From: Candidatus Caldarchaeum sp.
GTDB lineage: Archaea; Thermoproteota; Nitrososphaeria_A; Caldarchaeales; Caldarchaeaceae
NCBI GenBank assembly: GCA_038844785.1
Contig: JAWBRA010000041.1
Span: 1 to 11,465, forward strand
Length of the DNA: 11,465 nucleotides
Direction: 5' to 3'
The stretch's first letter is position 1. Every line of letters begins with the position of its first letter. A program made the position numbers and the translations under genes. The notes under the pieces are model-generated. The model was given only the letters and a program-made list of their open reading frames with translations. It did not search any database and had not been told where the DNA came from. Shown here piece after piece: positions 674-11,284 of the stretch.

Positions 674-697
674 TCATGGCTTTAAGCTGATGGGGCC
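674..697 (-). promoter_or_regulatory. 24-bp conserved promoter element (RNR gene)
   Basis: Reverse complement GGCCCCATCAGCTTAAAGCCATGA matches the 4237-4260 copy at 20/24; ATG 656 lies 18 nt downstream. Confidence 0.8.
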
Positions 698-758
698 TGA
701 ACCCCGTCCACCCGCTGGGAAAAACTGCTTCGAAACGGGACATTGTTTAACGTCAATT

Positions 759-1532
759 TTATGACGAGACGCATTCTATGGCTATTCTCAGGGGGTCCAC
801 ATGGTTTATGGGGAGGTCTACGACGGCGGCGAACTTTGTGGCGTGGACGAATTTCTTGGGGTAGGATGTTGCGGCAGGGTTGAAGAACGGGCTGTCGCGT
901 ACCTTGGCGAGAAGCGTCCCCCCATCCCGCGACGGCATGATGACGCCGATAATGGACTTGTCTGGATGTGCGTCTTCGATAAGAGCTATGCTGAGCGGTG
1001 TCTCGGTCACGGCTATGAAGCCGAGCGGGGTCTCGATGAAGCGGGTTTTTTTCGCCTGCTGGTATTCATCGAGTATCGCAAGGATGTTTTTCCCTACGGC
1101 CTTCATAACCTCGTGGAGGGGGTCTTGTGGTTTTATCGTGGTGTGGGACATGAAAACTTTGAGCAGGGCTTTCTCGGCTAGGCTTCTTCTAGCCTGTCCG
1201 ACTGTGGCGGCGGCGTGTCTGTGCCCCATGCGGTCGGCAACATCCACGTATACGAAATCCGACGGAAGGTCTTCGAGAGATATTCCGTAAACGTCTCTGA
1301 GAACCAGAAAAAAGCTGGAGGGGATGTCTATGTCCTGATGGTGGTCGAAGAACCTTACTCCGTCGTATCTTCGCCCAATGTCCACGACTATTGTGTCCTC
1401 GTCAACTTCGTCGGCGGATAGTTCGGGAACACGCTCCACCACCGCTTGGGGATGTTTCAGCAGAAGAAGCGATACGGCGAGAAACTCGTCACAGTGGGCA
1501 GGTCCCGAATGTGTTAGAATCCTCCGAATCAT
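759..1532 (-). CDS. MYG1/UPF0160-family metal-dependent hydrolase (DHH superfamily, putative exonuclease), 257 aa
   Basis: Motifs ILTHSGPAHCDEF, VVDIGRRYDG..FFDHHQ and C-terminal FVHATKF match the MYG1 pattern (THxGxFHxDE, DVGxxYD, FDHHQ, FVHxxGF). Start moved from 1640 to ATG 1532, 19 nt below the promoter element. Confidence 0.85.
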   Translation of the reverse strand: MIRRILTHSGPAHCDEFLAVSLLLLKHPQAVVERVPELSADEVDEDTIVVDIGRRYDGVRFFDHHQDIDIPSSFFLVLRDVYGISLEDLPSDFVYVDVADRMGHRHAAATVGQARRSLAEKALLKVFMSHTTIKPQDPLHEVMKAVGKNILAILDEYQQAKKTRFIETPLGFIAVTETPLSIALIEDAHPDKSIIGVIMPSRDGGTLLAKVRDSPFFNPAATSYPKKFVHATKFAAVVDLPINHVDPLRIAIECVSS

Positions 1533-1550
1533 GGATGGACTACACGGGTT

Positions 1551-1574
1551 TGATGGATTTAAGGAGGTGAGGCC
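1551..1574 (-). promoter_or_regulatory. 24-bp conserved promoter element (MYG1-like gene)
   Basis: Reverse complement GGCCTCACCTCCTTAAATCCATCA, 21/24 identical to 4237-4260; overlaps the stop codon of the upstream gene. Confidence 0.85.
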
Positions 1575-1828
1575 TTGCGTGATGACTGAGCGGCGACATG
1601 AACTCCCACAGCTGTGGATAATGGTCTGTCCTCGAAACATATCTTTGTCACAAGCTTCAGCCTGCCGTCGCTGAGGCGGTAGACTTTGACGATGTCTCCC
1701 TCACGGCATGACCTCAGGCACTCCAAGTATTCGGCTAGATGTGTTCCGCAAAGGTATAGAGTGGTCTGGGTCTTCAGGTTGACCGCCTTGAACCTGTACC
1801 GCCTCCCACAGCGGTAACCGCACTCCAT
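1559..1828 (-). CDS. Small Cys/His-rich putative zinc-binding protein, 89 aa
   Basis: CGYRC...LCGTH ligand pattern; ATG 13 nt after the stop of the wHTH gene with a GAGGGG SD-like sequence. Confidence 0.6.
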   Translation of the reverse strand: MECGYRCGRRYRFKAVNLKTQTTLYLCGTHLAEYLECLRSCREGDIVKVYRLSDGRLKLVTKICFEDRPLSTAVGVHVAAQSSRKASPP

Positions 1829-1840
1829 GGTCGAAACCCC

Positions 1841-2317
1841 TCAAGAGGTCTGACGCGGCTCCACCTGCTCGGAGAAAACCCTGTGAAAGCTGGTGAAAGT
1901 CTCCAGCATTGACTTGATTTCCAGCAGACAGTTGCCGCAGAGGTACCAGCCGTTGTAGTAGACGAGCATGCCGTAGGAGTGGCATAGGCTGCAGAATGGT
2001 TTTTTCACCCCACTCTGCACTATCTCGTTCCCAGTTTTATTCTGTTTTTCCCTGTTTTCAGCCCTCGGTGGAGAGGTTTTTATCTGCTCAACCTTTTGGA
2101 GAAGGGTGTTTGGGTCGATGACTGTATAGACGTATGTGTTGTCGTCTGTCAGCCTTTTTTCAACAATACCGTTCTCCGCAAACCTTTCAAGATAATGCCA
2201 CGCCGTTTGTCTCGGAACTCCGACATCTCTGGCTATCTGGGAGAGTGTTGCGGGACCCTGTAAAAGCCTCTCGGCAACCCTGAACTTTGTTTTCACATAG
2301 CTGGCGGCAACTTCCAC
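1841..2317 (-). CDS. Winged-helix HTH transcription regulator with C-terminal C4 zinc finger, 158 aa
   Basis: LLQGPATLSQIARDVGVPRQTAWHYLERFAENGIVEK is a typical wHTH; C-terminal CSLC-x14-CGNC. Confidence 0.85.
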   Translation of the reverse strand: MEVAASYVKTKFRVAERLLQGPATLSQIARDVGVPRQTAWHYLERFAENGIVEKRLTDDNTYVYTVIDPNTLLQKVEQIKTSPPRAENREKQNKTGNEIVQSGVKKPFCSLCHSYGMLVYYNGWYLCGNCLLEIKSMLETFTSFHRVFSEQVEPRQTS

Positions 2318-2334
2318 GGGTCTGTACTGGTGTC

Positions 2335-2378
2335 TGATGGATAAATTCGTATGATGTGGCCTTTTACGTATTTATATA
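2335..2378. promoter_or_regulatory. Divergent promoter region between the wHTH gene and the metallopeptidase gene
   Basis: TTTATATA at 2371-2378 lies 22-29 nt before ATG 2400. On the minus strand a 27-nt variant of the conserved element (GGCCACATCATACGAATTTATCCATCA, 2335-2361) ends 18 nt before GTG 2317. Confidence 0.7.
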
Positions 2379-2399
2379 TGGCGGTAAACTCATCGCCTA

Positions 2400-3569
2400 A
2401 TGAGCGTCGCAGGCCTTCTGTTAATGCTCGTGCTTACCCTGCCCCAGATACCTGTTGAGCCTCCTCTGCTGGCAATAGACGTGACATGGGTGAAGTTGCC
2501 TGTAATGGTTTATGCCGACTATCAAGGCTCCAAATGCTCTCCAGAGGAGAACAGGGCCATCCTAGACATAGTACCCATGGCTCTGGAGATACATTACCAG
2601 TCAAACATAAGATACATTGCGGAGTTCGTCAGAGAAAGCTACATCATAGAGGTAAAGCAGACCTCTAACCCGTCTCAGGCGCAGGTTACTCTCACCGCTG
2701 AGAAGCTCGACAGGTTTGCGGGCATAGCGACAGCCACTACGTGGGACCCCATAACCTCTACTTGGAAGGATGTAAGGATTAAGTTGGACTGCATGATGGC
2801 TAGGGCGATTCCGGAAGCCCGTATAACGGTTTTCCTGCATGAGCTGTATCACACGCTCGGCGTCGGACATCCCGACGAGGGAAACATGTATGAGCTTATG
2901 GGAGGCGCTGCATGGAATATGACGGTCTACCCCTCAACGCTGGATTTCTACGCCTTATACGCCGTCCGCAGGACAATGACCAAGACGTATGTAAGGCTTC
3001 CAAGCAACATACCGTACGTCATGCTTGAGCCCTACAACGTAACGTTGTCGAAGCTCGCTGGTAGGGTGGGGGAGCTTGAAACACGCCTCAACCAGACAAC
3101 CCTTCAGCTGAGGCTTTCGGAGCAGGAGGTGGAAGCCCTTAGAAAAACACTTGAAAACGACGTAGCTGTACTTGACAGCAGGGTGGACGTCATCGAGGGC
3201 AGGCTGGAGAATGTGGAGGCCACGCTGTATAACGTGAGAGAGGACAACAGCATGTTCAAACAACAGTTTCAAACGGTTGATAAGGAGCTGAAATCTCAGG
3301 CCTCTAGGCTGGACTCCATAGCCGCCGAGGTGGGGGGTTTGAGGGGTTCTTACGAGCCGCTGTCTTCACGGGTCTCGGGAATAATCAACGCCATCGACGA
3401 GTTGAGGACACAGCTTGAAAGGCTGACGGAGGAGAACCGCAGGCTGACACTGCTGTCGATTACATCCTGTATGCTTGCGGCCTCTGCCGTGGTAGCCACA
3501 GCCGCGCTGGCAGCCAAAGCCGTAAGAAAGACCGGACATGCAGATGAAGCGTCGAAGACAACCGGCTGA
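2400..3569 (+). CDS. Secreted, C-terminally membrane-anchored zinc metallopeptidase (metzincin/matrixin-like) with long coiled-coil stalk, 389 aa
   Basis: Hydrophobic N-terminal signal; HELYHTLGVGH (HExxHxxGxxH, 2838-2870) followed by a Met-turn-like ELM; heptad-rich region of roughly 130 aa; C-terminal hydrophobic helix and charged tail. Confidence 0.85.
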   Translation: MSVAGLLLMLVLTLPQIPVEPPLLAIDVTWVKLPVMVYADYQGSKCSPEENRAILDIVPMALEIHYQSNIRYIAEFVRESYIIEVKQTSNPSQAQVTLTAEKLDRFAGIATATTWDPITSTWKDVRIKLDCMMARAIPEARITVFLHELYHTLGVGHPDEGNMYELMGGAAWNMTVYPSTLDFYALYAVRRTMTKTYVRLPSNIPYVMLEPYNVTLSKLAGRVGELETRLNQTTLQLRLSEQEVEALRKTLENDVAVLDSRVDVIEGRLENVEATLYNVREDNSMFKQQFQTVDKELKSQASRLDSIAAEVGGLRGSYEPLSSRVSGIINAIDELRTQLERLTEENRRLTLLSITSCMLAASAVVATAALAAKAVRKTGHADEASKTTG

Positions 3570-3590
3570 AGGATGGACCCCATATTTAAT

Positions 3591-3677
3591 GTCAAATATT
3601 TGACTCGACGACCGTCTAACCATAGTCATGAAATATACAACAATCGTCTAAAACTATATAAATGTCAAATGATTGAC
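3591..3677. promoter_or_regulatory. Pair of GTCAA-N4-TTGAC palindromic operator-like sites in an AT-rich intergenic region
   Basis: GTCAAATATTTGAC (3591-3604, perfect palindrome) and GTCAAATGATTGAC (3664-3677), both preceded by AAT, 73 bp apart. Confidence 0.65.
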
Positions 3678-3740
3678 GGAAGGCTCCAAGGCTTGCTGAT
3701 ATTATCGTTTTAATCCATCTCCTTAACCATAGGATGTAGA

Positions 3741-3965
3741 TTGGCCAACGACGGGGCTAAGCTTTATGTGAGAGTCTTCAGGGTGGCGAGGGGTAGACAA
3801 AAGAGCGTGTTCAACAAAACCTACACCATCTCCGAGTATGTTGATTATCTCAGGATGATGGGTGAGCTGAGGACGATGCTGTGGGGTGAGTATCTCAGAG
3901 GCAGGCATGTCAAACAAATGATGCTGCGGCCGTCGAAGTTGAAACCTGTTCCACGCCTTTTTTGA
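3741..3965 (+). CDS. Small basic hypothetical protein, 74 aa
   Basis: TTG start 21 nt below a partial promoter element (CGTTTTAATCCATC, 3706-3719); fills the gap between flanking genes; no recognised family. Confidence 0.6.
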   Translation: MANDGAKLYVRVFRVARGRQKSVFNKTYTISEYVDYLRMMGELRTMLWGEYLRGRHVKQMMLRPSKLKPVPRLF

Positions 3966-3969
3966 CGAA

Positions 3970-3993
3970 GGCGTCATCAAGCTATAGCCATGC
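3970..3993 (+). promoter_or_regulatory. Degenerate copy of the 24-bp promoter element
   Basis: GGCGTCATCAAGCTATAGCCATGC, 17/24 identical to the RNR-gene copy; ATG 4017 lies 24 nt downstream. Confidence 0.5.
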
Positions 3994-4016
3994 TTTCCAT
4001 CTTCGTATGTCGGGGG

Positions 4017-4223
4017 ATGAAGGAGGAAGTAGTGGTCAGGTTAAACCACAGACGCTCCTACGCCAACGGCTACAGATACTGTTCACATTGTCGGAGATTC
4101 CTGCTTGTAGAGGGGCTGCGGTGTCCTTTCTGCGGAAGGCAGATGAGGTGGCGTCCGAGAAAAAGTAAACATAAACAGGGCAGGGTTCACGTCGAGCTAA
4201 ACCCTGAGGACTTGGGCGTTTAG
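4017..4223 (+). CDS. Small basic C4 zinc-finger protein (paralog A), 68 aa
   Basis: YANGYRYCSHCRRF...LRCPFCGRQMRWRPRK; ATG 4017 is preferred over 3990 because 3990 falls inside the promoter element. Confidence 0.8.
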   Translation: MKEEVVVRLNHRRSYANGYRYCSHCRRFLLVEGLRCPFCGRQMRWRPRKSKHKQGRVHVELNPEDLGV

Positions 4224-4236
4224 AGTGTCGGTCGAT

Positions 4237-4260
4237 GGCCTCATCCGCTTAAATCCATCA
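4237..4260 (+). promoter_or_regulatory. 24-bp conserved promoter element (reference copy)
   Basis: GGCCTCATCCGCTTAAATCCATCA; exact reverse complement of 4996-5019; ATG 4279 lies 19 nt downstream. Confidence 0.85.
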
Positions 4261-4278
4261 TACATCGAAGATGATACC

Positions 4279-4434
4279 ATGTTGCTGGTGCTGGTTCTGG
4301 CGATAGGTTTCACCGTTGCGTTGATGGTTAGCCCCAAGCTTAGGTTCGCCACAGCCCTAATCCTGAGGAGAGCTCTTTTCCTGAACGGCAGGAGAAACAA
4401 CAGGCAGGCGAGCAACGTCTATGCAAGGGGATGA
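4279..4434 (+). CDS. Small membrane-associated protein, 51 aa
   Basis: MLLVLVLAIGFTVALMVSP hydrophobic N-terminus and basic tail; start set by promoter spacing; ATGA overlap with the next gene. Confidence 0.6.
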   Translation: MLLVLVLAIGFTVALMVSPKLRFATALILRRALFLNGRRNNRQASNVYARG

Positions 4435-4712
4435 AGACGACTGTGGAGAGGGAGCTACATGGTGGAGGACTGTATGAGAGGGGCTTCAAATACTGTTCAA
4501 GATGCCGCAAATACTTCTTGACCGGGAGCCTGAGATGCCCCAGATGTGGAAGAAGAATGAGATACAGGCCGAGGCGCAAACACCCATACAGTAAACATAG
4601 TTATGGGTTTTTCTCCAGAAGCTCCTTAGCCCTTTTGGCAATCTCAACCTTTTTTGAAGTCTTGTCGCATATCTTAACTAGCTTGAAACGTGCTGGACGG
4701 CCAGCAACATAG
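4431..4712 (+). CDS. Small basic C4 zinc-finger protein (paralog B), 93 aa
   Basis: YERGFKYCSRCRKYF...LRCPRCGRRMRYRPRRK, clearly paralogous to 4017-4223; the last 112 nt overlap the convergent gene. Confidence 0.75.
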   Translation: MKTTVERELHGGGLYERGFKYCSRCRKYFLTGSLRCPRCGRRMRYRPRRKHPYSKHSYGFFSRSSLALLAISTFFEVLSHILTSLKRAGRPAT

Positions 4713-4978
4713 TCTATGCTCTCTATAGCGGCAGCCAATAAAGCTGCCTCAGCAGGGCTCGCAGACATAGGAACAGTTAGAATATGTTTTTCACCGTTCC
4801 TGTCGAGGATGCATTTTCCAGCCTTCCCCTCCTTCTGAAGGTTCGACAGGCTGTATGACTCTATCACTTCTGTCTGGCCGTACAGGGCTCCGAAAACATC
4901 ACGTATGGAAACACCATCAGCCTCAACTTCGAACACAAGCTCGAACTCGTGTCCGAACGGCTTTGACACAGACTTCAT
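4601..4978 (-). CDS. Stand-alone homolog of the N-terminal (RNA-binding) domain of archaeal DnaG, no TOPRIM domain, 125 aa
   Basis: ADGV..RDVFGALYGQTE, LSNLQKEGKAGK, EAALLAAAIESIDYV and KRAKELL track the archaeal DnaG N-terminal pattern as I recall it (DGVV..PDVxGAIFGQTEG, LRELQKTGRIGR, ETAILAAALETIDRV, ERAKELL); the stop falls immediately after the domain. Confidence 0.8.
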   Translation of the reverse strand: MKSVSKPFGHEFELVFEVEADGVSIRDVFGALYGQTEVIESYSLSNLQKEGKAGKCILDRNGEKHILTVPMSASPAEAALLAAAIESIDYVAGRPARFKLVKICDKTSKKVEIAKRAKELLEKNP

Positions 4979-4995
4979 GGCTGCTGATACAACGC

Positions 4996-5019
4996 TGATG
5001 GATTTAAGCGGATGAGGCC
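4996..5019 (-). promoter_or_regulatory. 24-bp conserved promoter element (DnaG-NTD gene)
   Basis: TGATGGATTTAAGCGGATGAGGCC, 24/24 inverted copy of 4237-4260; ATG 4978 lies 18 nt downstream. Confidence 0.85.
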
Positions 5020-5033
5020 TTCACACGGCCGTT

Positions 5034-5354
5034 CTATATCTCCAGCTCTTCTTCACCACTACCCTCGGTTTTTGGGTTAACTTTCTCTAAAGCATCCATC
5101 AGAGCGTCAAGCTTCTTGTTTGACAGGAGCTGTCTGAAAGCCTCAAGCTCACTCCTACTCCTCAGCATAAGCCCCCTCCTCTTGGTGGGTGCTCCATCCT
5201 CGCCTACGGGGTTTATCTCGACGATGAGCGACGCAGGCCTACCCCTATAGGCCGGTGCTTTAACAACAAACAGTCCGGGAGAGTCCTTGACGGGCGCTCT
5301 CTGCCAGTCTCTCCCCGCTTGCAGCAGCCTCCTCAACCCATCCTCCAAGGACAT
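5034..5354 (-). CDS. Conserved-looking archaeal protein, putative PC4-like ssDNA-binding protein with acidic tail, 106 aa
   Basis: LIVEINPVGEDGAPTKRRGLMLRSRSELEAF resembles the PC4 strand-hairpin-KG(I/L)xL-helix pattern; ends GSGEEELEI. ATG 5354 chosen over 5384. The CDS is solid; the fold call is tentative. Confidence 0.55.
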   Translation of the reverse strand: MSLEDGLRRLLQAGRDWQRAPVKDSPGLFVVKAPAYRGRPASLIVEINPVGEDGAPTKRRGLMLRSRSELEAFRQLLSNKKLDALMDALEKVNPKTEGSGEEELEI

Positions 5355-5437
5355 GCTACAACAACCTCTGCATAGGCTGAACAAATACTTTCAAGGCCGA
5401 TGCTTAGACTGTCTTGGGAAAAGCGGTAGCTAGTGGC

Positions 5438-5716
5438 TTACGGCGGTATAAGCTCTCTGCGGGTGAGCTGTTTATGGATTGGTTTCCTTCGGTTTTGTCC
5501 GAGAATCAAGGCGATAATGGTTGCTGTGGTTGAGAGGATGATTGCGGAGATTATGATGGCTGCTCCTTTTTCACCTGCCAGCAGACGGAAGAAAATGAGC
5601 CCTACCAAGATGAAGAATACGATGAAGGGTAGGATTAGGGGTAGTATGGTGATTGTAGCCGTGATTAGAAGCGCTGTTACAACGGCTCTGGAGATTAGCT
5701 TAGCGATTTCTTTCAA
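5438..5716 (-). CDS. Small integral membrane protein (2-3 TM, basic C-terminus), 92 aa
   Basis: Long Ile/Leu-rich stretches; TTG start preceded by GAAGGTGA SD (5723-5730); partial promoter element CCGCTTAAATACAT at 5774-5787. Confidence 0.7.
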   Translation of the reverse strand: MKEIAKLISRAVVTALLITATITILPLILPFIVFFILVGLIFFRLLAGEKGAAIIISAIILSTTATIIALILGQNRRKPIHKQLTRRELIPP

Positions 5717-5900
5717 GGTGTTTCACCTTCTACCGTTAGGCTGAGGTATTTTCTCTGTGACGATGAAGTTCACATGTATTTAAGCGGTTTTTCGCGGCAC
5801 GCATCGCCTCATATCGGTAGCGTGGTGGCCTTAAACGGGTTACATCCTGTCTCTTCAGATGTCCCCACACCTCATGTAGGGCAGGCTTTATTCCAAAACA

Positions 5901-6278
5901 TCATAGACTGTAGCTGGACAGTTTCTTGATACGGTTTAGCATGTACCATACCAGCCTCACACCCTCGATTCTTTTCCTAACCTCCTCTAGGGCTTTTCCG
6001 GCTGTGTTGCTGTCTTTTTTCATGAGGGTTTCAAGGGTTTTTACACGATGTTGTAAGACCTCTTTCATCGTGCAGTACTCCAGCTCAAGTTCCCCCCTCA
6101 ACTGTTCCATCCCGTCTACATTGAACGGGTCTCTCAGCCTTTCCAAGGCTTGGTTATAGCAGACAACAGCTTTCTCGGTCATTATCAAGCGTATTTCCTT
6201 ATCTGCTGTAGCCTGAAGATGCTGAGGTATGTCCGTCTCATGAACGGCTGGAGGAGCTGTCAAACGTTTGTCATCCAT
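5901..6278 (-). CDS. Alpha-helical/coiled-coil hypothetical protein downstream of the tubulin-like gene, 125 aa
   Basis: ATG 6278 with GGAGGTG SD; overlaps the stop of the tubulin-like gene; E/K/L/R-rich helical composition. Confidence 0.7.
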   Translation of the reverse strand: MDDKRLTAPPAVHETDIPQHLQATADKEIRLIMTEKAVVCYNQALERLRDPFNVDGMEQLRGELELEYCTMKEVLQHRVKTLETLMKKDSNTAGKALEEVRKRIEGVRLVWYMLNRIKKLSSYSL

Positions 6279-7281
6279 GTAGCTCCACACCTCCCACCAG
6301 TATGCTTACGTACGTTTTCTCCGACTCAGGTCTTCGGGCTAGGAGTGTTTTCACCTCTATGGGCTGTGAGCCCAGCACGTCTCTAAGCTGTTCCGGTAGG
6401 GCCTCCACGTGCTGCGGCGTCAGCTGACCTCTGCCAGCCTCCATCACAGCTAGGCACGATATTTTGTTTAATCCTTTGGCTATGGGTGACAGCATGCTGG
6501 AGTCGTGCTGGGAGAGGTTTTGTATTTCGGCGGGTGTTGGGAGAGTGTAGGTCATGGCTATTACGGGGGCTGGCTTGAGGATTCTTCTCAGGTCGCTGCT
6601 GTCTATGACTGTTATCGCTTTTGGGTTCGACATGGCTCTGAGAACCGTGTTGAGAGGTTTCACTATTCTTTCGTTGGCTGTGTTGAGGGCTTTGGTGAAA
6701 TCGGTATCCATAAAGTCTCTTATCAGGTATGAGTTGCTGGCCGGTATGACTGGGGCGTGTTTACATGCCTGCTGGAGGGCTTTGACGGCTCTCCTCCGTG
6801 TCTCATCACCCTCCCAAGCAAACGGCAGGGTGAATATCCCAAGCACGCAGGAGTTTGGATACTTTTTCACGAGGTCTTCTAGGAGGGCTGGCCCTGCTCC
6901 GGAACCGCAGCCAAAACCCAGAGTAGCTATGACCGGTACGAGGTCTATCCTGTCGTAGCCTTTCTCCTCAGCTATTTTTTTAGGAAGCTCCAATATCTCC
7001 TGTCTGGAGGGGCTTTCCAGATAGTCTCTCCTGCCTTTCTCAGGGTTCATGCCGCTTCCTGTCCCATCCCCTATTACATACAGGCCTCTCTGCTGGTAGC
7101 CTTTGAGCTGCTCGATGTCCATCCTGCTGCTGCTTATGCATACCGCTTCAACGCCTGAAAGCCTCTGAGCAATCCACCTTCCTCCCGGCCCTCTTCCGTG
7201 GACTAGGGTTGCGGCGAGACGGCTTCCGCCGCTTCCAACCCCGTATACCACGGGTATCGTTATGGTTGGCTGGCCTGACAT
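6271..7281 (-). CDS. Divergent tubulin/FtsZ-superfamily GTPase (FtsZ/CetZ/TubZ-like), 336 aa
   Basis: GVGSGGSRLA (T1), GTGSGMNPEKG (T3), TLGFGCGSGAGP (T4 signature variant, 6898-6918), TLPFAWEG..RRRA and VIDSSDLRRIL (T7); strong GGAGGTGA SD. Confidence 0.9.
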   Translation of the reverse strand: MSGQPTITIPVVYGVGSGGSRLAATLVHGRGPGGRWIAQRLSGVEAVCISSSRMDIEQLKGYQQRGLYVIGDGTGSGMNPEKGRRDYLESPSRQEILELPKKIAEEKGYDRIDLVPVIATLGFGCGSGAGPALLEDLVKKYPNSCVLGIFTLPFAWEGDETRRRAVKALQQACKHAPVIPASNSYLIRDFMDTDFTKALNTANERIVKPLNTVLRAMSNPKAITVIDSSDLRRILKPAPVIAMTYTLPTPAEIQNLSQHDSSMLSPIAKGLNKISCLAVMEAGRGQLTPQHVEALPEQLRDVLGSQPIEVKTLLARRPESEKTYVSILVGGVELHG

Positions 7282-7550
7282 GTGTTCACCTCCTCCATAA
7301 GCTTGAGCAGTCTTACCTGCCAGTCTTCCCCAAGCATCTTCAAAGACAGGTTGACTATGCGTGAGAGTAAAATATGGCTGGCGAGAGGGTCTTCAGCGTC
7401 TTCGAAGAACCGTTTCAGCCTCGAAACTACCTCCTCAGGCGGAAGGGTGCTGTCCAAGCCCAGCATTTCAGGAAGCTTGACGTAAACTTTCTGAGCAGCC
7501 GAAACTAAGGCGTTGGACAGCGTCCACTCCTCCCAAGGTTTTGTGAGCAT
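7260..7550 (-). CDS. Small alpha-helical hypothetical protein, first gene of the tubulin-like operon, 96 aa
   Basis: ATG 7550 (TTG 7556 alternative) lies 20 nt below a partial promoter element (GTTAAATCCATAA, 7570-7582); overlaps the tubulin-like start by 22 nt. Confidence 0.7.
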   Translation of the reverse strand: MLTKPWEEWTLSNALVSAAQKVYVKLPEMLGLDSTLPPEEVVSRLKRFFEDAEDPLASHILLSRIVNLSLKMLGEDWQVRLLKLMEEVNTCQASQP

Positions 7551-7669
7551 CTGCAAGCTGTGCGGCAGCTTATGGATTTAACCATATGGACATGTCTGAG
7601 CCGTTCCTGTGAGTTTTTCAGCGCTGTTAGCCGTTGACAGGAAGGCTTCACCCCCTCAAGCGTGGGAAT

Positions 7670-7866
7670 CGTCAATTGTCTAAAGCCTTCAGAAAGACCT
7701 GATTCCCCGAAGTTTCGGCTTTCTGGACGGGGGTTTATCCGCATGCTACGGTAATACGTTTCGGAGAATTTTTGACACATTGAAAGTGGGCCTAAATCCC
7801 TGAAGTTTCGCCTCTCCACAGAGGTGGGGTGTAAAAATAATGACGCTTTACGTCAAACGTCTAAAG
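7670..7866. repeat. Two pairs of imperfect direct repeats in the long intergenic region upstream of the tubulin-like operon
   Basis: CCTGATTCCCCGAAGTTTCGGCTTTC (7698-7723) vs CCTAAATCCCTGAAGTTTCGCCTCTC (7791-7816), 21/26; CGTCAATTGTCTAAAG (7670-7685) vs CGTCAAACGTCTAAAG (7851-7866), 14/16. Confidence 0.6.
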
Positions 7867-7912
7867 AAGGGTTGTGTGTCAATATGTTGAAGGGGTTGTC
7901 TCTTTGGCGGTT

Positions 7913-9268
7913 TCATGAGAACACGTCGTCCAAATCCTCAGGCTTAACTCCTAACCTTTCTCTGGGAACCGCCTTAGCATTTACATGTCTGTGTCTCGAG
8001 CTGACGTAGTAGGCTGTGGAGAGGGCGGCCGCAGCCAAGCCGGCAACACCTATCGTCGGCAGGTCTGGCTCGAGAACGTATACCGCCTCGACGGTCTTCG
8101 GCGAGTCTATTCTCAGCGTCAGCGGGCCTTTAACCGAGCATAGGTCGCCGCAGTCGCCTGAAAAACCCTTGAAGCTCCTCTTCACGAAGAGAAGGGCTTG
8201 AACCTCGTTCGGCACCCTCACCACAGCAGCGGAGCCCTCCTCATACCATCCAGCCCCAGAGCTGCCGGCGGGAGATTTAACATCGACACGGTACTCGGTC
8301 ACGTAAACAGCCTTTACGTTCAAAGGCCTTTTCACAACGACGTTGAACGTGTTAGTATTGCTGCTCAGGTCTCCGCTCCAGCGTTTGAACGCCAGCCTCA
8401 CTGAATCTGGCTTGATGTCGATGTAAGCTGGGGTGGAAATCTGTAGCAGTTCTCCTTCACGGAACCATCCGGCCAGCACAACTCCCTGAGGACCTGTTGC
8501 GTTCACGAGGAAATACCTGTCGTACACGGCCTTGATTACGTGAGGCGCTCTAACCTCAACAGCCGTGACGGGGCTGGGAGCGTTGTGTACAATGACGGGG
8601 CTTGCCCCTATCGAGACCCATTCCCTGAACACAAGCTTCTCACCCTCCGACAACCAAACCTCTTTAGGGGCGGAAATCACCGCAACCTCTCCCTCACGAT
8701 ACCAGCCTGTCCCGTTCACCACAGCGCCGGAGGAAACCACCTGCAACAATACCTCTTTCCTAAACCTCAGCTCTACGTAGAGAGGCTCTAACACGACTAT
8801 GGTGTTGGTTGTGTTGAAAGGCGTCTCACCCCTACTCCACCTCTCGAAGACGTACCTGTAGCCTGCTTCAACGGTTTCGCGTTGGGCCTCCAGCAAAACC
8901 CTCTCACCCCTCACAGCCCAGAAGCTTCTCCTAAAACGTTCGTAGTTAGAGTCCACAACCACGAGAAGCTCCTCCGCATACACCGCCTCATACGTTCCGG
9001 GACGGTCTACTTTGATGCAGGGCTCCGTCCCCCCGCCCAGCCAGCCCCGGAAGACAAGCCTCTTTTCAGGCGTGACGTAATGCACCAGCTCTCGGACGCA
9101 GGCCGTCGAGCCTACTGAAACTGTTGCAGGTGTTTTCTCTACAACCTGTCCCTCAACAACCATGGGGAGGCCGTGCCTGTTCCACACGACGGCCTCGGCA
9201 GCCTCAACCGTACGAGTCAGGGAAAACAGGACCAAGAAAGCGGCTACTAGAAACAGTCCAGCCCTCAA
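7913..9268 (-). CDS. Cell-surface protein with about five tandem ~75-aa beta-rich repeats (divergent InlB B-repeat-like) and C-terminal TM anchor, 451 aa
   Basis: Signal peptide RAGLFLVAAFLVLFSLTRTVEA. Repeated GWYREG/GWFREG/GWYEEG, (L/Y)(V/A)FxxW and (V/I/Y)xAVY motifs. TM TIGVAGLAAAALSTAYYV plus charged tail. Start placed at TTG 9268 (TTGA overlap, GAGGGGTG SD). Confidence 0.8.
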   Translation of the reverse strand: MRAGLFLVAAFLVLFSLTRTVEAAEAVVWNRHGLPMVVEGQVVEKTPATVSVGSTACVRELVHYVTPEKRLVFRGWLGGGTEPCIKVDRPGTYEAVYAEELLVVVDSNYERFRRSFWAVRGERVLLEAQRETVEAGYRYVFERWSRGETPFNTTNTIVVLEPLYVELRFRKEVLLQVVSSGAVVNGTGWYREGEVAVISAPKEVWLSEGEKLVFREWVSIGASPVIVHNAPSPVTAVEVRAPHVIKAVYDRYFLVNATGPQGVVLAGWFREGELLQISTPAYIDIKPDSVRLAFKRWSGDLSSNTNTFNVVVKRPLNVKAVYVTEYRVDVKSPAGSSGAGWYEEGSAAVVRVPNEVQALLFVKRSFKGFSGDCGDLCSVKGPLTLRIDSPKTVEAVYVLEPDLPTIGVAGLAAAALSTAYYVSSRHRHVNAKAVPRERLGVKPEDLDDVFS

Positions 9269-9927
9269 AGCCCGACACCCCTCAGTATAGCCTGCCGGGA
9301 GATGGAGGAAAGACATGCCACCATCAGCAACGCATAGCATAGCTGAACAAGTCTACGGGTTCTCCCGTCAGACGTTTCGAGAGCTCTACAGCCTACAGCT
9401 GTAGCGGACGCTAGAAAGGTTGCTGCATACCTTCCCAAGGAGACGAGGCCTGTGTCGCCAGCCACCGCCATAGCAACGACGGAGAATGCGGAAGGCCAGA
9501 AGAGGCTGACATCCCTGCCGCCCGTGGGTAGGAGAAGCAGGATAAGCGTCAAGAATGCTAACGGTATAACGGCTGAGCCCATGTAGAGAAAGCCGAGAAA
9601 CGGTATGGCTAGAACAACCTTTCCCTGAACCCTCTCCCAGCCAACATGCTCCACATACCCCGGCTGGGCGTCAGCAGTAACGAGCAAACCGTCAACCCCA
9701 ACCTCCACAACCCTGTGCATCAGCTTATAACCCGAGCCGGCCATAGCGTACACCACAACATCCCCTTGGTAGAACCGTTCATCCCTGACGGCCACGACCA
9801 AAGAGCCTGCCGGAATGCTCGGCTCCATGCTTCCAGTAGCAACATAATGTATGGAGACCGTTCCCGTCGCGATAGCGTAAGCCGCCAGCAACACGGAGGC
9901 CGTCAGTATGGGGGTGGAAAGCCTCAA
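9265..9927 (-). CDS. Signal peptidase I, S26B (Sec11/SipW type), with extra C-terminal TM helices, 220 aa
   Basis: VATGSMEPSI (catalytic Ser), GDVVVY, LMHRVV (catalytic His), VQGKVVLAIPFLG; TTGA overlap with the upstream gene. Confidence 0.9.
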   Translation of the reverse strand: MRLSTPILTASVLLAAYAIATGTVSIHYVATGSMEPSIPAGSLVVAVRDERFYQGDVVVYAMAGSGYKLMHRVVEVGVDGLLVTADAQPGYVEHVGWERVQGKVVLAIPFLGFLYMGSAVIPLAFLTLILLLLPTGGRDVSLFWPSAFSVVAMAVAGDTGLVSLGRYAATFLASATAVGCRALETSDGRTRRLVQLCYALLMVACLSSISRQAILRGVGL

Positions 9928-10298
9928 GGCTGGGTCACCCTAACCCTAACCTGAGCAGGATAGTCATAAGGACATGAAGGGTTTAATTGGATGGCGAGCT
10001 GTGTGGGTGCGCTGCTGAGAAAGGCTGATGTGGAGCCGTAGGAGCTGCACCCACCCACAGTTACGAAAACCTCCACAAGATACGTTCCAGACACGGAGCT
10101 GGAGACGGTTACGGTCGCAGAATTGATGGTGTTCGCCGCGACGCTCACCCTTAAAACCCTGACATCTACTTTCTTCACATCGACAATCCCTGAACCGCCC
10201 GCCTGAGAAACAGAACCCGTCGAAACTGCTAAAGAATAGACCGCCATGGAGACGGACGTTAAAAGCAAAACAACTATCAGAAGATTTTTACGTCCCAT
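9924..10298 (-). CDS. Secreted beta-rich protein, paralog 3 (putative minor fibre subunit), ~124 aa
   Basis: Signal peptide MGRKNLLIVVLLLTSVSMAVYS; QAGGSGIVDV matches QLGGTGLVDV of paralog 1; two Cys; alternative ATG at 10310. Confidence 0.75.
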   Translation of the reverse strand: MGRKNLLIVVLLLTSVSMAVYSLAVSTGSVSQAGGSGIVDVKKVDVRVLRVSVAANTINSATVTVSSSVSGTYLVEVFVTVGGCSSYGSTSAFLSSAPTQLAIQLNPSCPYDYPAQVRVRVTQP

Positions 10299-10300
10299 AA

Positions 10301-10741
10301 CTATATACATGTTGGCATTTCCAGACAGTTGATGACGTGGAACACGCGAACTATGCAGGTCCGAACAGCAGCTACGCTGTCAGCAGGCACTGGAGTCGAA
10401 AAAGGAAGTGTCTCGGTATGTGTGCCGGAGCTCCGAAAACCGCAGACAGCTGTGCTTGCTGCAAGCAGGTTTCCGTTAGAATCGTACAACCCCGCCTGCC
10501 TCACGTAGGCTGACCCGGTTGTAACAATGAAGGTGACTCTCACGCGGTTTACATTCTGTCCCGTCAAAAGCAATTGAGCCGCGGTCATCCTGCTACCGGT
10601 TATAAAGTCTCTACCCAGCTCGTAAGTTGTGTCAGGCCTGTTCGGAAGGACGGACACTTGGCTAACTGTTAAAACTACTGACAGAGCCAGCGAGGAGACA
10701 AAAAATAAAAAGGTTGCTGCGACCAGCAGGCTAGTTCTCAA
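10301..10741 (-). CDS. Secreted beta-rich protein, paralog 2 (putative minor or tip fibre subunit), 146 aa
   Basis: Signal peptide; LTGQNVNRVRV..TGSAY..LYDSNGNLLA aligns with LTG..VDRVNV..TGATY..LYDSANTVIS of paralog 1; overlaps the upstream stop. Confidence 0.75.
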   Translation of the reverse strand: MRTSLLVAATFLFFVSSLALSVVLTVSQVSVLPNRPDTTYELGRDFITGSRMTAAQLLLTGQNVNRVRVTFIVTTGSAYVRQAGLYDSNGNLLAASTAVCGFRSSGTHTETLPFSTPVPADSVAAVRTCIVRVFHVINCLEMPTCI

Positions 10742-11138
10742 CGATTACTACCTCAACCCTGTAGACATCCCTCGGGTCTACGTTCGGGTTTACGTCCACC
10801 ACCGTGGTCACCTGACTGCTGCTGGCAGGCTGGTTTGCCGAGCCAGAGCTGATGACTGTGTTGGCGCTGTCGTAGAGCGTAACGTAGACCGTGTACGTTG
10901 CGCCAGTGGTCTTGGCCGTGGTCCACTGAACGTTGACACGGTCAACCCGGAATGGCGCTGTACCTGTGAGAGTCCATGAAACCTTTGAGACTTGACAAGG
11001 GTTGGCTGGACAGTTTACGTCAACCAGCCCTGTTCCACCAAGCTGTGCCACTTCGCTGCTGGTCAACGCTATGGCCACCGCATAGACCGTCGTCACCAGA
11101 AGAACGGGCAAGAGGCCTGCAACTAAAAGCAGCCTCAT
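10731..11138 (-). CDS. Secreted beta-rich protein, paralog 1 (putative major fibre subunit), 135 aa
   Basis: Class I signal peptide ending VYA; Thr/Val/Ser-rich beta pattern; CPANPC; no membrane anchor; TATA-like AATAAATA (11161-11168, minus strand) 23-30 nt upstream. Confidence 0.8.
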   Translation of the reverse strand: MRLLLVAGLLPVLLVTTVYAVAIALTSSEVAQLGGTGLVDVNCPANPCQVSKVSWTLTGTAPFRVDRVNVQWTTAKTTGATYTVYVTLYDSANTVISSGSANQPASSSQVTTVVDVNPNVDPRDVYRVEVVIVEN

Positions 11139-11211
11139 GTCGTTTGCTTATACGAAGATGTATTTATTCTGATAATATGTCTCAGGCCGCTCCTGTACGT
11201 ACATGCACCTC

Positions 11212-11225
11212 GTCATTGTTTTGAC
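11212..11225. promoter_or_regulatory. GTCA-N6-TGAC palindromic operator-like site between divergent promoters
   Basis: cGTCATTGTTTTGACg; same 14-bp span as the sites at 3591 and 3664. Confidence 0.5.
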
Positions 11226-11260
11226 GGTGGGGTTAGGACTGTCATTTTGATTCAAGTGAT

Positions 11261-11284
11261 GGCCGCATCAGCTAATATACTTGG
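11261..11284 (+). promoter_or_regulatory. Degenerate copy of the 24-bp promoter element
   Basis: GGCCGCATCAGCTAATATACTTGG, 17/24 identical to the RNR-gene copy; in-frame GTG 11303 lies 19 nt downstream. Confidence 0.55.

Follow-up and report, generated by a model that had tools for sequence, protein, structure and literature searches.

Motif copies in the window and the surrounding island

The stretch of DNA analysed here, hereafter the window, is the entire 11,465-nucleotide contig C41 of the Candidatus Caldarchaeum genome G000 (1.74 Mb in 57 contigs; the letters G, C, L and X denote genomes, contigs, loci and metagenome or RNA sequencing runs, respectively), and the runs that contain its DNA are hot-spring and sediment metagenomes. 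It carries the start of a class II ribonucleotide reductase (RNR) gene together with genes for a MYG1-like exonuclease, a winged helix-turn-helix (wHTH) protein, a lone DnaG N-terminal domain, an FtsZ-like GTPase and a signal peptidase, and several of these are preceded by copies of a 24-bp motif in which an earlier note on this DNA had seen candidate promoters of an element-specific regulon. Comparative evidence from the sequences strongly supports the view that the repeat represents a real, island-restricted and non-canonical promoter class.

The four best copies lie where the earlier note had placed them, and a rescan found them to contain 0, 0, 3 and 4 mismatches. The two perfect copies (30.9 bits each) are located at 4237-4260 on the forward strand, 18 nt before ATG 4279, and at 4996-5019 on the reverse strand, 17 nt before ATG 4978 of the DnaG N-terminal-domain gene (4601-4978). 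The other two, both on the reverse strand, are found at 1551-1574 (21/24, 22.7 bits), with the MYG1-like exonuclease gene (759-1532) starting 18 nt further on at ATG 1532, and at 674-697 (20/24, 17.8 bits), 17 nt before ATG 656 of the RNR gene, which is truncated by the contig end. The claim that the motif precedes the RNR, MYG1 and DnaG genes is thereby confirmed, and the motif-to-ATG gaps of 18, 17, 18 and 17 nt also bear out the proposed geometry of a TTAAA core at about -30 to -25 and GGCC at about -42, the actual positions being -30/-29 to -26/-25 and -42/-41. From this spacing we infer promoter activity and leaderless start sites for the motif-bearing genes, gene starts having been taken from a simple purpose-made caller that places some of them wrongly, while the RNA-library evidence consists of assembled contigs from two RNA runs. 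The CATC described on either side of the TATA box is present in the best copies only; the family consensus has YAWC before the box and CWT after it, and the part downstream of TATA fades in more distant islands.

Such repetition is not expected by chance. At least three matches to the 24-mer, as seen in the window at 4237-4260 and 4996-5019 with 0 mismatches and at 1551-1574 with 3, occurred in 0 of 200 shuffles, and all four sites with up to five mismatches in the whole G000 genome sit on the window contig. The genomic observed-to-expected ratio of GGCC is 0.77, with no special depletion. The window gave no Rfam hits, and scans for sigma-70 promoters and terminators stayed near chance (11 versus 7.2 and 14 versus 10.1, respectively).

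A further strong copy, absent from the earlier note, is found at 2358-2381 (+, 20.1 bits), 18 nt before ATG 2400. Scored with a matrix trained on G008, the degenerate copies listed in that note hold up only in part. The one at 11261-11284 (+) scores 14.8 bits and lies 15-18 nt before GTG 11300/11303, with homology to contig C27 and to G002 starting 20 nt upstream of it, and the one at 2335-2358 (-), which lacks GGCC in register, reaches 12.0 bits and is followed after 17 nt by GTG 2317, the start of the wHTH gene (1841-2317, -). The rest score 10.0, 9.2, 6.1 and 2.4 bits, and a single site below about 12 bits is inside the genome background (50 hits of at least 12 bits and 277 of at least 8 bits on the other G000 contigs). 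They are, in this order, 3970-3993 (+), with a small zinc-ribbon gene starting 23 nt downstream at ATG 4017; the TATA-half copy 5772-5795 (-), which has no start codon within 30 nt and is unsupported as a leaderless promoter; the TATA-half copy 7570-7593 (-), 19 nt before ATG 7550 and upstream of the FtsZ-like gene pair; and 3697-3720 (+), a background-level match to the 3′ half only, 20 nt before TTG 3741. Two other weak copies have informative orthologs: a GGCCT-led variant at 5375-5398 (-, 3.9 bits), ahead of a conserved 106-aa gene whose ATG 5354 is 20 nt away, retains a GGCC-like start in many of them, and the promoters orthologous to the copy at 11156-11179 (-, 7.8 bits), 17 nt before ATG 11138 of a pilin-like/signal-peptidase cassette, score 16.4 and 29.7 bits.

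Homologs of the window genes lie within one island of about 116 kb that is complete in the relatives G008 and G012. In G008 it occupies contig C2 from about 347.0 kb, where a tRNA-like sequence lies, to about 462.9 kb, no end repeat being found, and the corresponding site of G000 is nearly empty with only about 1.5 kb. The G008 island encodes a set of DNA-metabolism proteins (RNR, DprA, MYG1, PLD nuclease, helicases, Hjc, HerA/NurA and primase large subunit), as well as Alba, ParB, a type IV pilus ATPase with TadC, pilin-like proteins and VirB4- and VirD4-like ATPases. The latter two are present in both complete islands, with all matches below the family cut-offs, and a VirB4-like gene was found in 4 of 76 genomes. 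The G012 island is syntenic with that of G008 (aligned blocks 66-99.9% identical), and G006 and G009 carry island remnants. The window is a fragment of such an island, which resembles integrative and conjugative elements (ICEs) and is of the conjugative type, not viral. Searches for a viral origin gave little: a degenerate motif pattern had 0 matches in viral contigs, the 106-aa marker had only 6 marginal viral hits (E 6e-4, 32 residues), and no PHROG was found for 7 window proteins.

Further traces of the island occur in G000. The FtsZ-like gene with its upstream partner is present twice at 90% DNA identity (window 6271-7556 and C27:15223-16490), so the assembly contains pieces of at least two island variants, and a broken RNR copy at C2:80063-80704, 78% identical to that of the window and surrounded by small island-like genes with weak motif sites, is by its sequence an apparent older remnant. 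In G008, the conjugation operon and the replication arm are separated by about 3 kb of GC-rich and mostly non-coding sequence (L026:2175-5239, at 449-452 kb), which is 77% conserved in G012 and is a candidate origin of transfer or replication.

Contrast with host promoters and conservation across islands

A motif matrix seeded with nine G008 sites resembling the window 24-mer converged on 38 sites of at least 13 bits with the consensus GGCC-TYAWCCGN-TTAWAT-NCWT, and 26 of the 38 have an ATG 16-21 nt downstream, against 10.4% at random. In successive 20-kb blocks of G008 from 347 to 447 kb there are 17, 7, 5, 7 and 5 sites of at least 11 bits, and these 41 sites span 348-444 kb and include ParB and pilin-locus genes, which does not fit the small viral-like temporal class envisaged before. 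From 447 to 467 kb, where the conjugation operon starts and the primase-helicase arm lies, no such site was found. In G000 the four top hits of the matrix are all on C41, no hit of 20 bits or more lies off its three element contigs, and the 13 hits of at least 15 bits outside these contigs are inside the range of 3-17 obtained with column-shuffled matrices. The 24-mer with up to three mismatches occurs in 5 of 41 genomes, every one of the same genus, and the reversed-pattern controls gave 0. A stricter pattern applied to 76 genomes gave 9 hits in G008 and 8 in G012; eight of those in G008 are inside the island, and the remaining one adjoins island-type genes. Single pattern hits in G018, G060, G061 and G067 are surrounded by ordinary host genes and were dropped as chance.

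Host promoters appear to be built differently. A TATA-like hexamer is present at -36 to -24 in 281 of 809 host first genes, and in these 281 promoters the columns 8-10, at the B recognition element (BRE), are rich in A (0.50/0.56/0.40), where the motif has T/C/C. The TTAWAT at -30/-29 coincides with the host AT peak at -30 to -25, so the motif shares the TATA position of a canonical host-type promoter and lacks the A-rich BRE directly upstream. The host A peak we take to be BRE position -3, by which numbering the TATA octamer would occupy columns 12-19, the GGCC -11 to -8, and the key BRE positions of the motif would carry pyrimidines. When promoters were anchored on the TATA box without reference to the motif, GGCCT (up to one mismatch, spacing 12 ± 1) was found 12 nt upstream in 13 of 29 island promoters versus 12 of 320 host promoters (Fisher p 1.4e-9), and the mean A count at the BRE columns was 0.79 in the island versus 1.49 in the host. 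The motif is therefore specific to the element and is not the general host consensus. The combination of a weak BRE with a conserved element at a fixed distance, here GGCC 12 nt before the TATA hexamer, is also what characterizes activator-dependent weak-BRE promoters of the TFB-RF1 or ANTTTC type.

The same arrangement recurs among related islands. Loci retrieved with the conserved 106-aa island gene comprise 74 from metagenomes and 14 from genomes, some of them duplicating regions of the G genomes. In seven island sets GGCC is found at -46 to -36 before 8/26, 15/61, 8/40, 7/21, 3/14, 22/46 and 17/60 first genes (20-48%), and before 33 of 1170 host first genes (3%), where control positions gave 42 and 39 of 1170. 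A GGCC-TATA spacing of 12 is the mode in most island sets, and the GGCC, the spacing and the TATA hexamer are invariant across clades, the spacer and the CAT after TATA being clade-variable. In 24 score-filtered pairs of orthologous promoters, columns 1-7 and 13-17 are 0.62-1.00 identical and the flanks mostly 0.2-0.5; likewise, in 6 of 7 distinct RNR orthologs GGCC is followed by a TATA-type hexamer and, 16-19 nt later, by the start, within unrelated flanks. A conjugation remnant in G031 showed no GGCC-TATA promoter among the 100 kb listed.

Within the site, conservation continues past TATA (column 22 T 0.82, column 20 C 0.67), and there is no information upstream of column 0 in 39 sites. A palindrome like the TRBM, the element of the Thermococcales activator TFB-RF1, was not found, only the GGCC core of 4-6 bases being symmetric. 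A single-strand hairpin promoter of the Frpo type was also considered and rejected: mean folding z over 43 sites is -0.08 and -0.23 versus -0.18 in 30 control windows, and the local pairing of motif bases (0.59 versus 0.61 in controls) gives no excess of local hairpins.

Inversion and probable module exchange at the motif

The two perfect copies delimit a 783-bp segment (4237-5019) with a 51-aa open reading frame (ORF), a zinc-ribbon ORF and the DnaG N-terminal-domain gene. The segment has the opposite orientation in G002 and in L085/L086 and the same orientation in L087; both breakpoints of the inversion fall inside the motif, and a contig of run X8 joins 4137 to 5019 on opposite strands. The inverted forms are variants with 72-89% identity, and both orientations of the same sequence were not seen, contigs being prone to drop rare variants. 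Near-identical contigs are unbroken through 4237-4260 in X1, X3, X8 and X13, and through both copies in X1, which speaks against active flipping of the shufflon type. The inversion is evolutionary shuffling and not an observed switch, and since the perfect copies are its ends, it may also explain their 24/24 identity. The DnaG module itself (4601-4978, -; NCBIfam E 4.7e-16, profile 6-121 of 419) is a stand-alone archaeal N-terminal domain present in 13 loci, and one could speculate that it interferes with the host exosome or primase.

The opposite orientation of the segment in related islands makes it likely that the island promoters double as points of module exchange. Over 18 loci, 14 of 62 homology-block ends fall within 15 nt of a site versus 5.5 expected for intergenic ends. 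The inversion and these block ends would also suit a simple recombination cassette, in which modules travel together with a short promoter, exchange homogenizes the copies, and ordinary basal machinery transcribes them with no dedicated factor, much as the promoter-stem-loop (PeSL) cassettes of T4-type phages are described to behave (PMC2839356). However, the near-site ends reduce to about 4 independent junctions and 48 of the 62 lie elsewhere. Most copies share only GGCC, TATA and the spacing, which is too short for homologous exchange, and yet these are kept across diverged orthologs, while the depletion of the host BRE would stay unexplained without a compensating factor. We consider such a cassette, as the main explanation, quite unlikely.

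A dispersed non-coding repeat of about 300 bp also contains part of the motif sequence. It has eight copies in G000 (C9:12087-12398, C12:41088-41393, C15:852-1168, C20:350-690, C29:586-855, C35:58-387, C37:12832-13170 and C40:13-207) and one copy each in 2 of 12 other genomes of the genus; seven of these open with the 3′ two-thirds of the motif, after which come short inverted repeats and a motif-like sequence in convergent orientation. Three copies had no Rfam match, and the repeat is possibly a small non-autonomous element or an RNA that uses the island promoter type. The non-coding window segments 3586-3677 and 7698-7864 are multi-copy in G000, their copies often lying near contig ends and beside this repeat, and the read depth spikes over them.

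Candidate readers of the motif and likeness to known systems

Of the earlier proposal that a dedicated TFB paralog or activator reads these promoters, the dedicated, element-specific promoter class stands, but a shared island TFB or TBP was not found. A Pfam-level search detected no TFB or TBP paralog on the window contig, the hits in G000 being two TFB genes and one TBP gene, all in host context, and no TFB common to the complete G008 and G012 islands, although a TFB too divergent for Pfam could escape such a search. A TFB core of 204-205 aa, with two cyclin repeats, an altered C-terminal recognition helix and no zinc ribbon, is encoded in the G008 island (L012:8222-8836) and in the G009 remnant (L062:5339-5956), and could act as a dominant-negative or partner-dependent TFB. 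As for a TFB3-like zinc-ribbon partner in the island, the search gave only an E 0.026 match, and the small zinc-ribbon ORFs were rejected as Rpo12 after PF03604 had no match on them. A spare TBP is encoded by one island fragment of G002 and by 10 of the 88 related loci, three of which have sites of at least 15 bits; G008 and G012 are without one. Because the TFB core and the spare TBP are both sporadic across motif-bearing islands, neither of these basal paralogs appears to be the common reader.

The island TBP paralogs (L075:7250-7807, L091:7776-8324, L093:7736-8287, L096:793-1341 and L112:15937-17017; further loci are L099, L100, L101, L102, L103 and L111) are about 32-44% identical to the host TBP, some of them being truncated or fused and two lying in tandem in L112. 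A second word at promoter position, TTAAGTAA or TAAAGTAAC, seen in L112, L113, L121, L124, L132, L137, L138, L147, L157 and L099-L103, precedes 12/137 and 4/74 first genes of two locus groups in uncontrolled counts, and also the marker gene in TBP-adjacent loci; it may be a further promoter class, perhaps read by the spare TBP.

An alternative TFB could nevertheless read both sides of the TATA box in the manner of a sigma factor, be it the TFB core, a divergent island TFB or the host TFB2. The conservation of the motif on both sides of TATA, the changed C-terminal helix of the zinc-ribbon-less core, the altered recognition helix of TFB2 and the TFIIB homologues described in all thaumarchaeal ICEs (PMC6563490) all agree with such a reader. 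On the other hand, just 2 of 76 genomes have close homologs of the core, which number 2 protein clusters among 944 candidates; in G012 its position is occupied by a pilin/signal-peptidase cassette that the window carries too; the syntenic sites of G000 and G002 are without it, and all three genomes keep strong motif sites, while G009 has the core and 0 sites of at least 15 bits in 160 kb. By the usual BRE geometry, GGCC would lie 8-11 bases upstream of the TATA octamer, past the usual BRE, and a host TFB2 would be expected to have host targets, yet host promoters are near chance (12/320). A TFB-type reader is thus in our view unlikely.

The wHTH-zinc-finger protein of the window (1841-2317; 158 aa with a C-terminal four-cysteine motif, Pfam TrmB E 1.3e-7) and a longer relative of 220 aa are candidate readers or repressors. 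The predicted structure of the window protein matches wHTH proteins of the MarR/ArsR type, and its relatives occur in 5 of 76 genomes, all of them island-bearing. If it or another island protein were a repressor covering the BRE, the motif would be an operator that keeps the integrated island silent until induction. The overlap of the site with the BRE position, the predicted fold of known repressors, the divergent orientation of the gene relative to the cargo genes and, as a weak hint, its coverage by RNA-library contigs in both RNA runs are compatible with this. Repression, however, requires no loss of an A-rich BRE, and yet the BRE is depleted; moreover, the G008 site is not palindromic and the wHTH gene is frameshifted there, which makes an operator very improbable.

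Another candidate is an unannotated coiled-coil protein of 106 aa, whose gene directly follows RNR in G008 and other relatives and whose G000 counterpart would lie past the contig end. All nine loci of at least 9 kb that hold it have two or more GGCC-TATA promoters, as do 7 of 31 loci without it; it had no usable Atlas match. A different conserved island protein of 106 aa, encoded at window 5034-5354 (-), has a low-confidence model (pLDDT 60) that repeatedly, if weakly, matches single-strand binders of the PC4/Sub1/Pur-alpha kind (best E 0.17, Z 4.2), and an Atlas lead, and only a lead, to DUF3276 at 0.81.

The reader could finally be a host protein, if the island had taken over the motif of a host regulon for stress or DNA damage, much as SXT elements exploit the SOS response. 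In G000, GGCCT also stands 12 nt upstream of the TATA box of a radA paralog on C11 (15.6 bits), and UV-inducible promoters of Sulfolobus are described with an upstream hexamer at the same position (PMC5817253). But GGCC precedes only 8 of 17 copies of the radA paralog and is missing there in G008 and G012, whose islands are complete and rich in the motif, and in host genes GGCC is no commoner at -46 to -36 than at the control positions given above; we give a borrowed host regulon only a very small chance. This paralog lies at C11:26616-27700, with orthologs in L225-L238, and many Caldarchaeales have two radA genes; a C-rich tract is conserved upstream of the TATA box of the second, and CTATTAG before a T-tract is conserved in the genus at the first.

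We favour, at about an even chance, the reading in which the repeat is the private core promoter of a conjugative-type Ca. Caldarchaeum island, read by an island-encoded activator that recruits the host TFB and TBP. Such an activator would bind the GGCC block 12 bases upstream of the TATA-type hexamer and, by recruiting the host factors, would compensate for the depleted A-rich BRE, so that DNA-metabolism, defence-evasion and pilus genes of the island would be switched on together from likely leaderless starts. Near-identical copies would in addition serve as crossover points, at which cargo genes could be inverted or swapped while staying under island control. The need for an activator and its encoding by the island we infer by analogy: it is favoured because a fixed-distance upstream element with a weak BRE is the layout of TFB-RF1 promoters, and because it follows the logic of SetCD/AcaCD.

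Several findings weigh against this reading. The matrix derives its seed from the window's own 24-mer, and anchoring on TATA left 16 of the 29 island promoters without GGCCT at the tested spacing. Being a non-palindrome that covers the BRE position and reaches 3 bases beyond TATA, the site would suit a TFB-like reader equally. In clade A loci GGCC at -46 to -36 (24/222) is no more frequent than at -70 to -60 (25/222), and related islands in other hosts (Bathyarchaeia, Conexivisphaera and others) are without it (2/82). As to the wHTH candidate, its distribution test is circular, the query having been built from the same genes, the gene is frameshifted in G008, and its two subfamilies are only 25-28% identical. 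Finally, a VirB4-like gene was not found in the G000 assembly and a PF00589 integrase was found in 0 of four genomes, so that the window's own copy is putatively mobile at best.

A bolder variant, which seems possible but doubtful, is that a family of archaeal conjugative islands runs a transcription programme of its own by means of a new kind of specificity factor encoded on them. Distinct from TFB and TBP alike, this factor would recognize GGCC, at a distance of one helical turn from TATA on the upstream side, instead of the BRE. The promoters would then be sockets in which cargo such as the spare TBP, the truncated TFB or DnaG modules inverts or is exchanged, and joins the regulon automatically.

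How archaeal mobile elements turn on many genes together is largely untested. Here the cis side is defined to the base: each island has about 40 sites, their geometry is fixed and the contrast to the host is clean, which makes the system amenable to standard archaeal in vitro transcription with a few candidate proteins. The motif may also be used as a marker of island fragments in fragmented genomes. No published description of it was found, in literature searches that could not query the motif itself.

A close archaeal parallel is TFB-RF1 (PF1088) of the Thermococcales, an activator that recruits TFB at weak-BRE promoters (PMC5937170). Its promoters likewise have a TATA box, a weak BRE and a conserved upstream element at a fixed distance, and a similar recruitment of TFB is presumed for the island; the TRBM, however, is a 13-nt palindrome that serves two host operons, whereas here a non-palindromic, GGCC-led block serves dozens of island units. 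The ANTTTC promoters induced by UV in Sulfolobus (ups, tfb3) share with the motif a short non-palindromic element, at about -44 to -39, and a connection to pilus and DNA-transfer genes, but they belong to a host-wide DNA-damage regulon and are unrelated in sequence, while the island motif is island-restricted and extends through the BRE position (PMC5817253). With the PeSL cassettes of T4 the island shares repeated promoters in variable regions where modules swap; these are strong host-type promoters with terminator hairpins, in contrast to the non-host-type island sites that show no local hairpin excess (PMC2839356).

Among mobile elements, the island resembles thaumarchaeal ICEs and archaeal type IV pilus loci in its VirB4/VirD4-like ATPases, TadC, pilins and ParB and, in some island copies, a TFB homologue (PMC6563490, PMC4858521). 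Unlike the thaumarchaeal ICEs, all of which have TFIIB, mostly beside ParB, the TFB here is core-only, sporadic and far from ParB; the TFIIB homologues of those elements were reported without their promoters, the word promoter being absent from the main text of that source (PMC6563490). The regulatory logic is close to that of SXT/R391 ICEs and IncA/C plasmids, where SetCD and AcaCD make up for missing -35 boxes (PMC4542580). In both cases the promoters of the element lack a core element of the host, carry a private upstream motif and include variable cargo, with the activator of the island being presumed. The bacterial system differs in that it is based on sigma-70 and an FlhCD-like activator that drives the transfer operons (PMC4542580), whereas in G008 the VirB4-side operon start and the replication arm are free of the motif. 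If an island activator indeed reads the motif, it would be an archaeal counterpart of the SetCD/AcaCD master switch.

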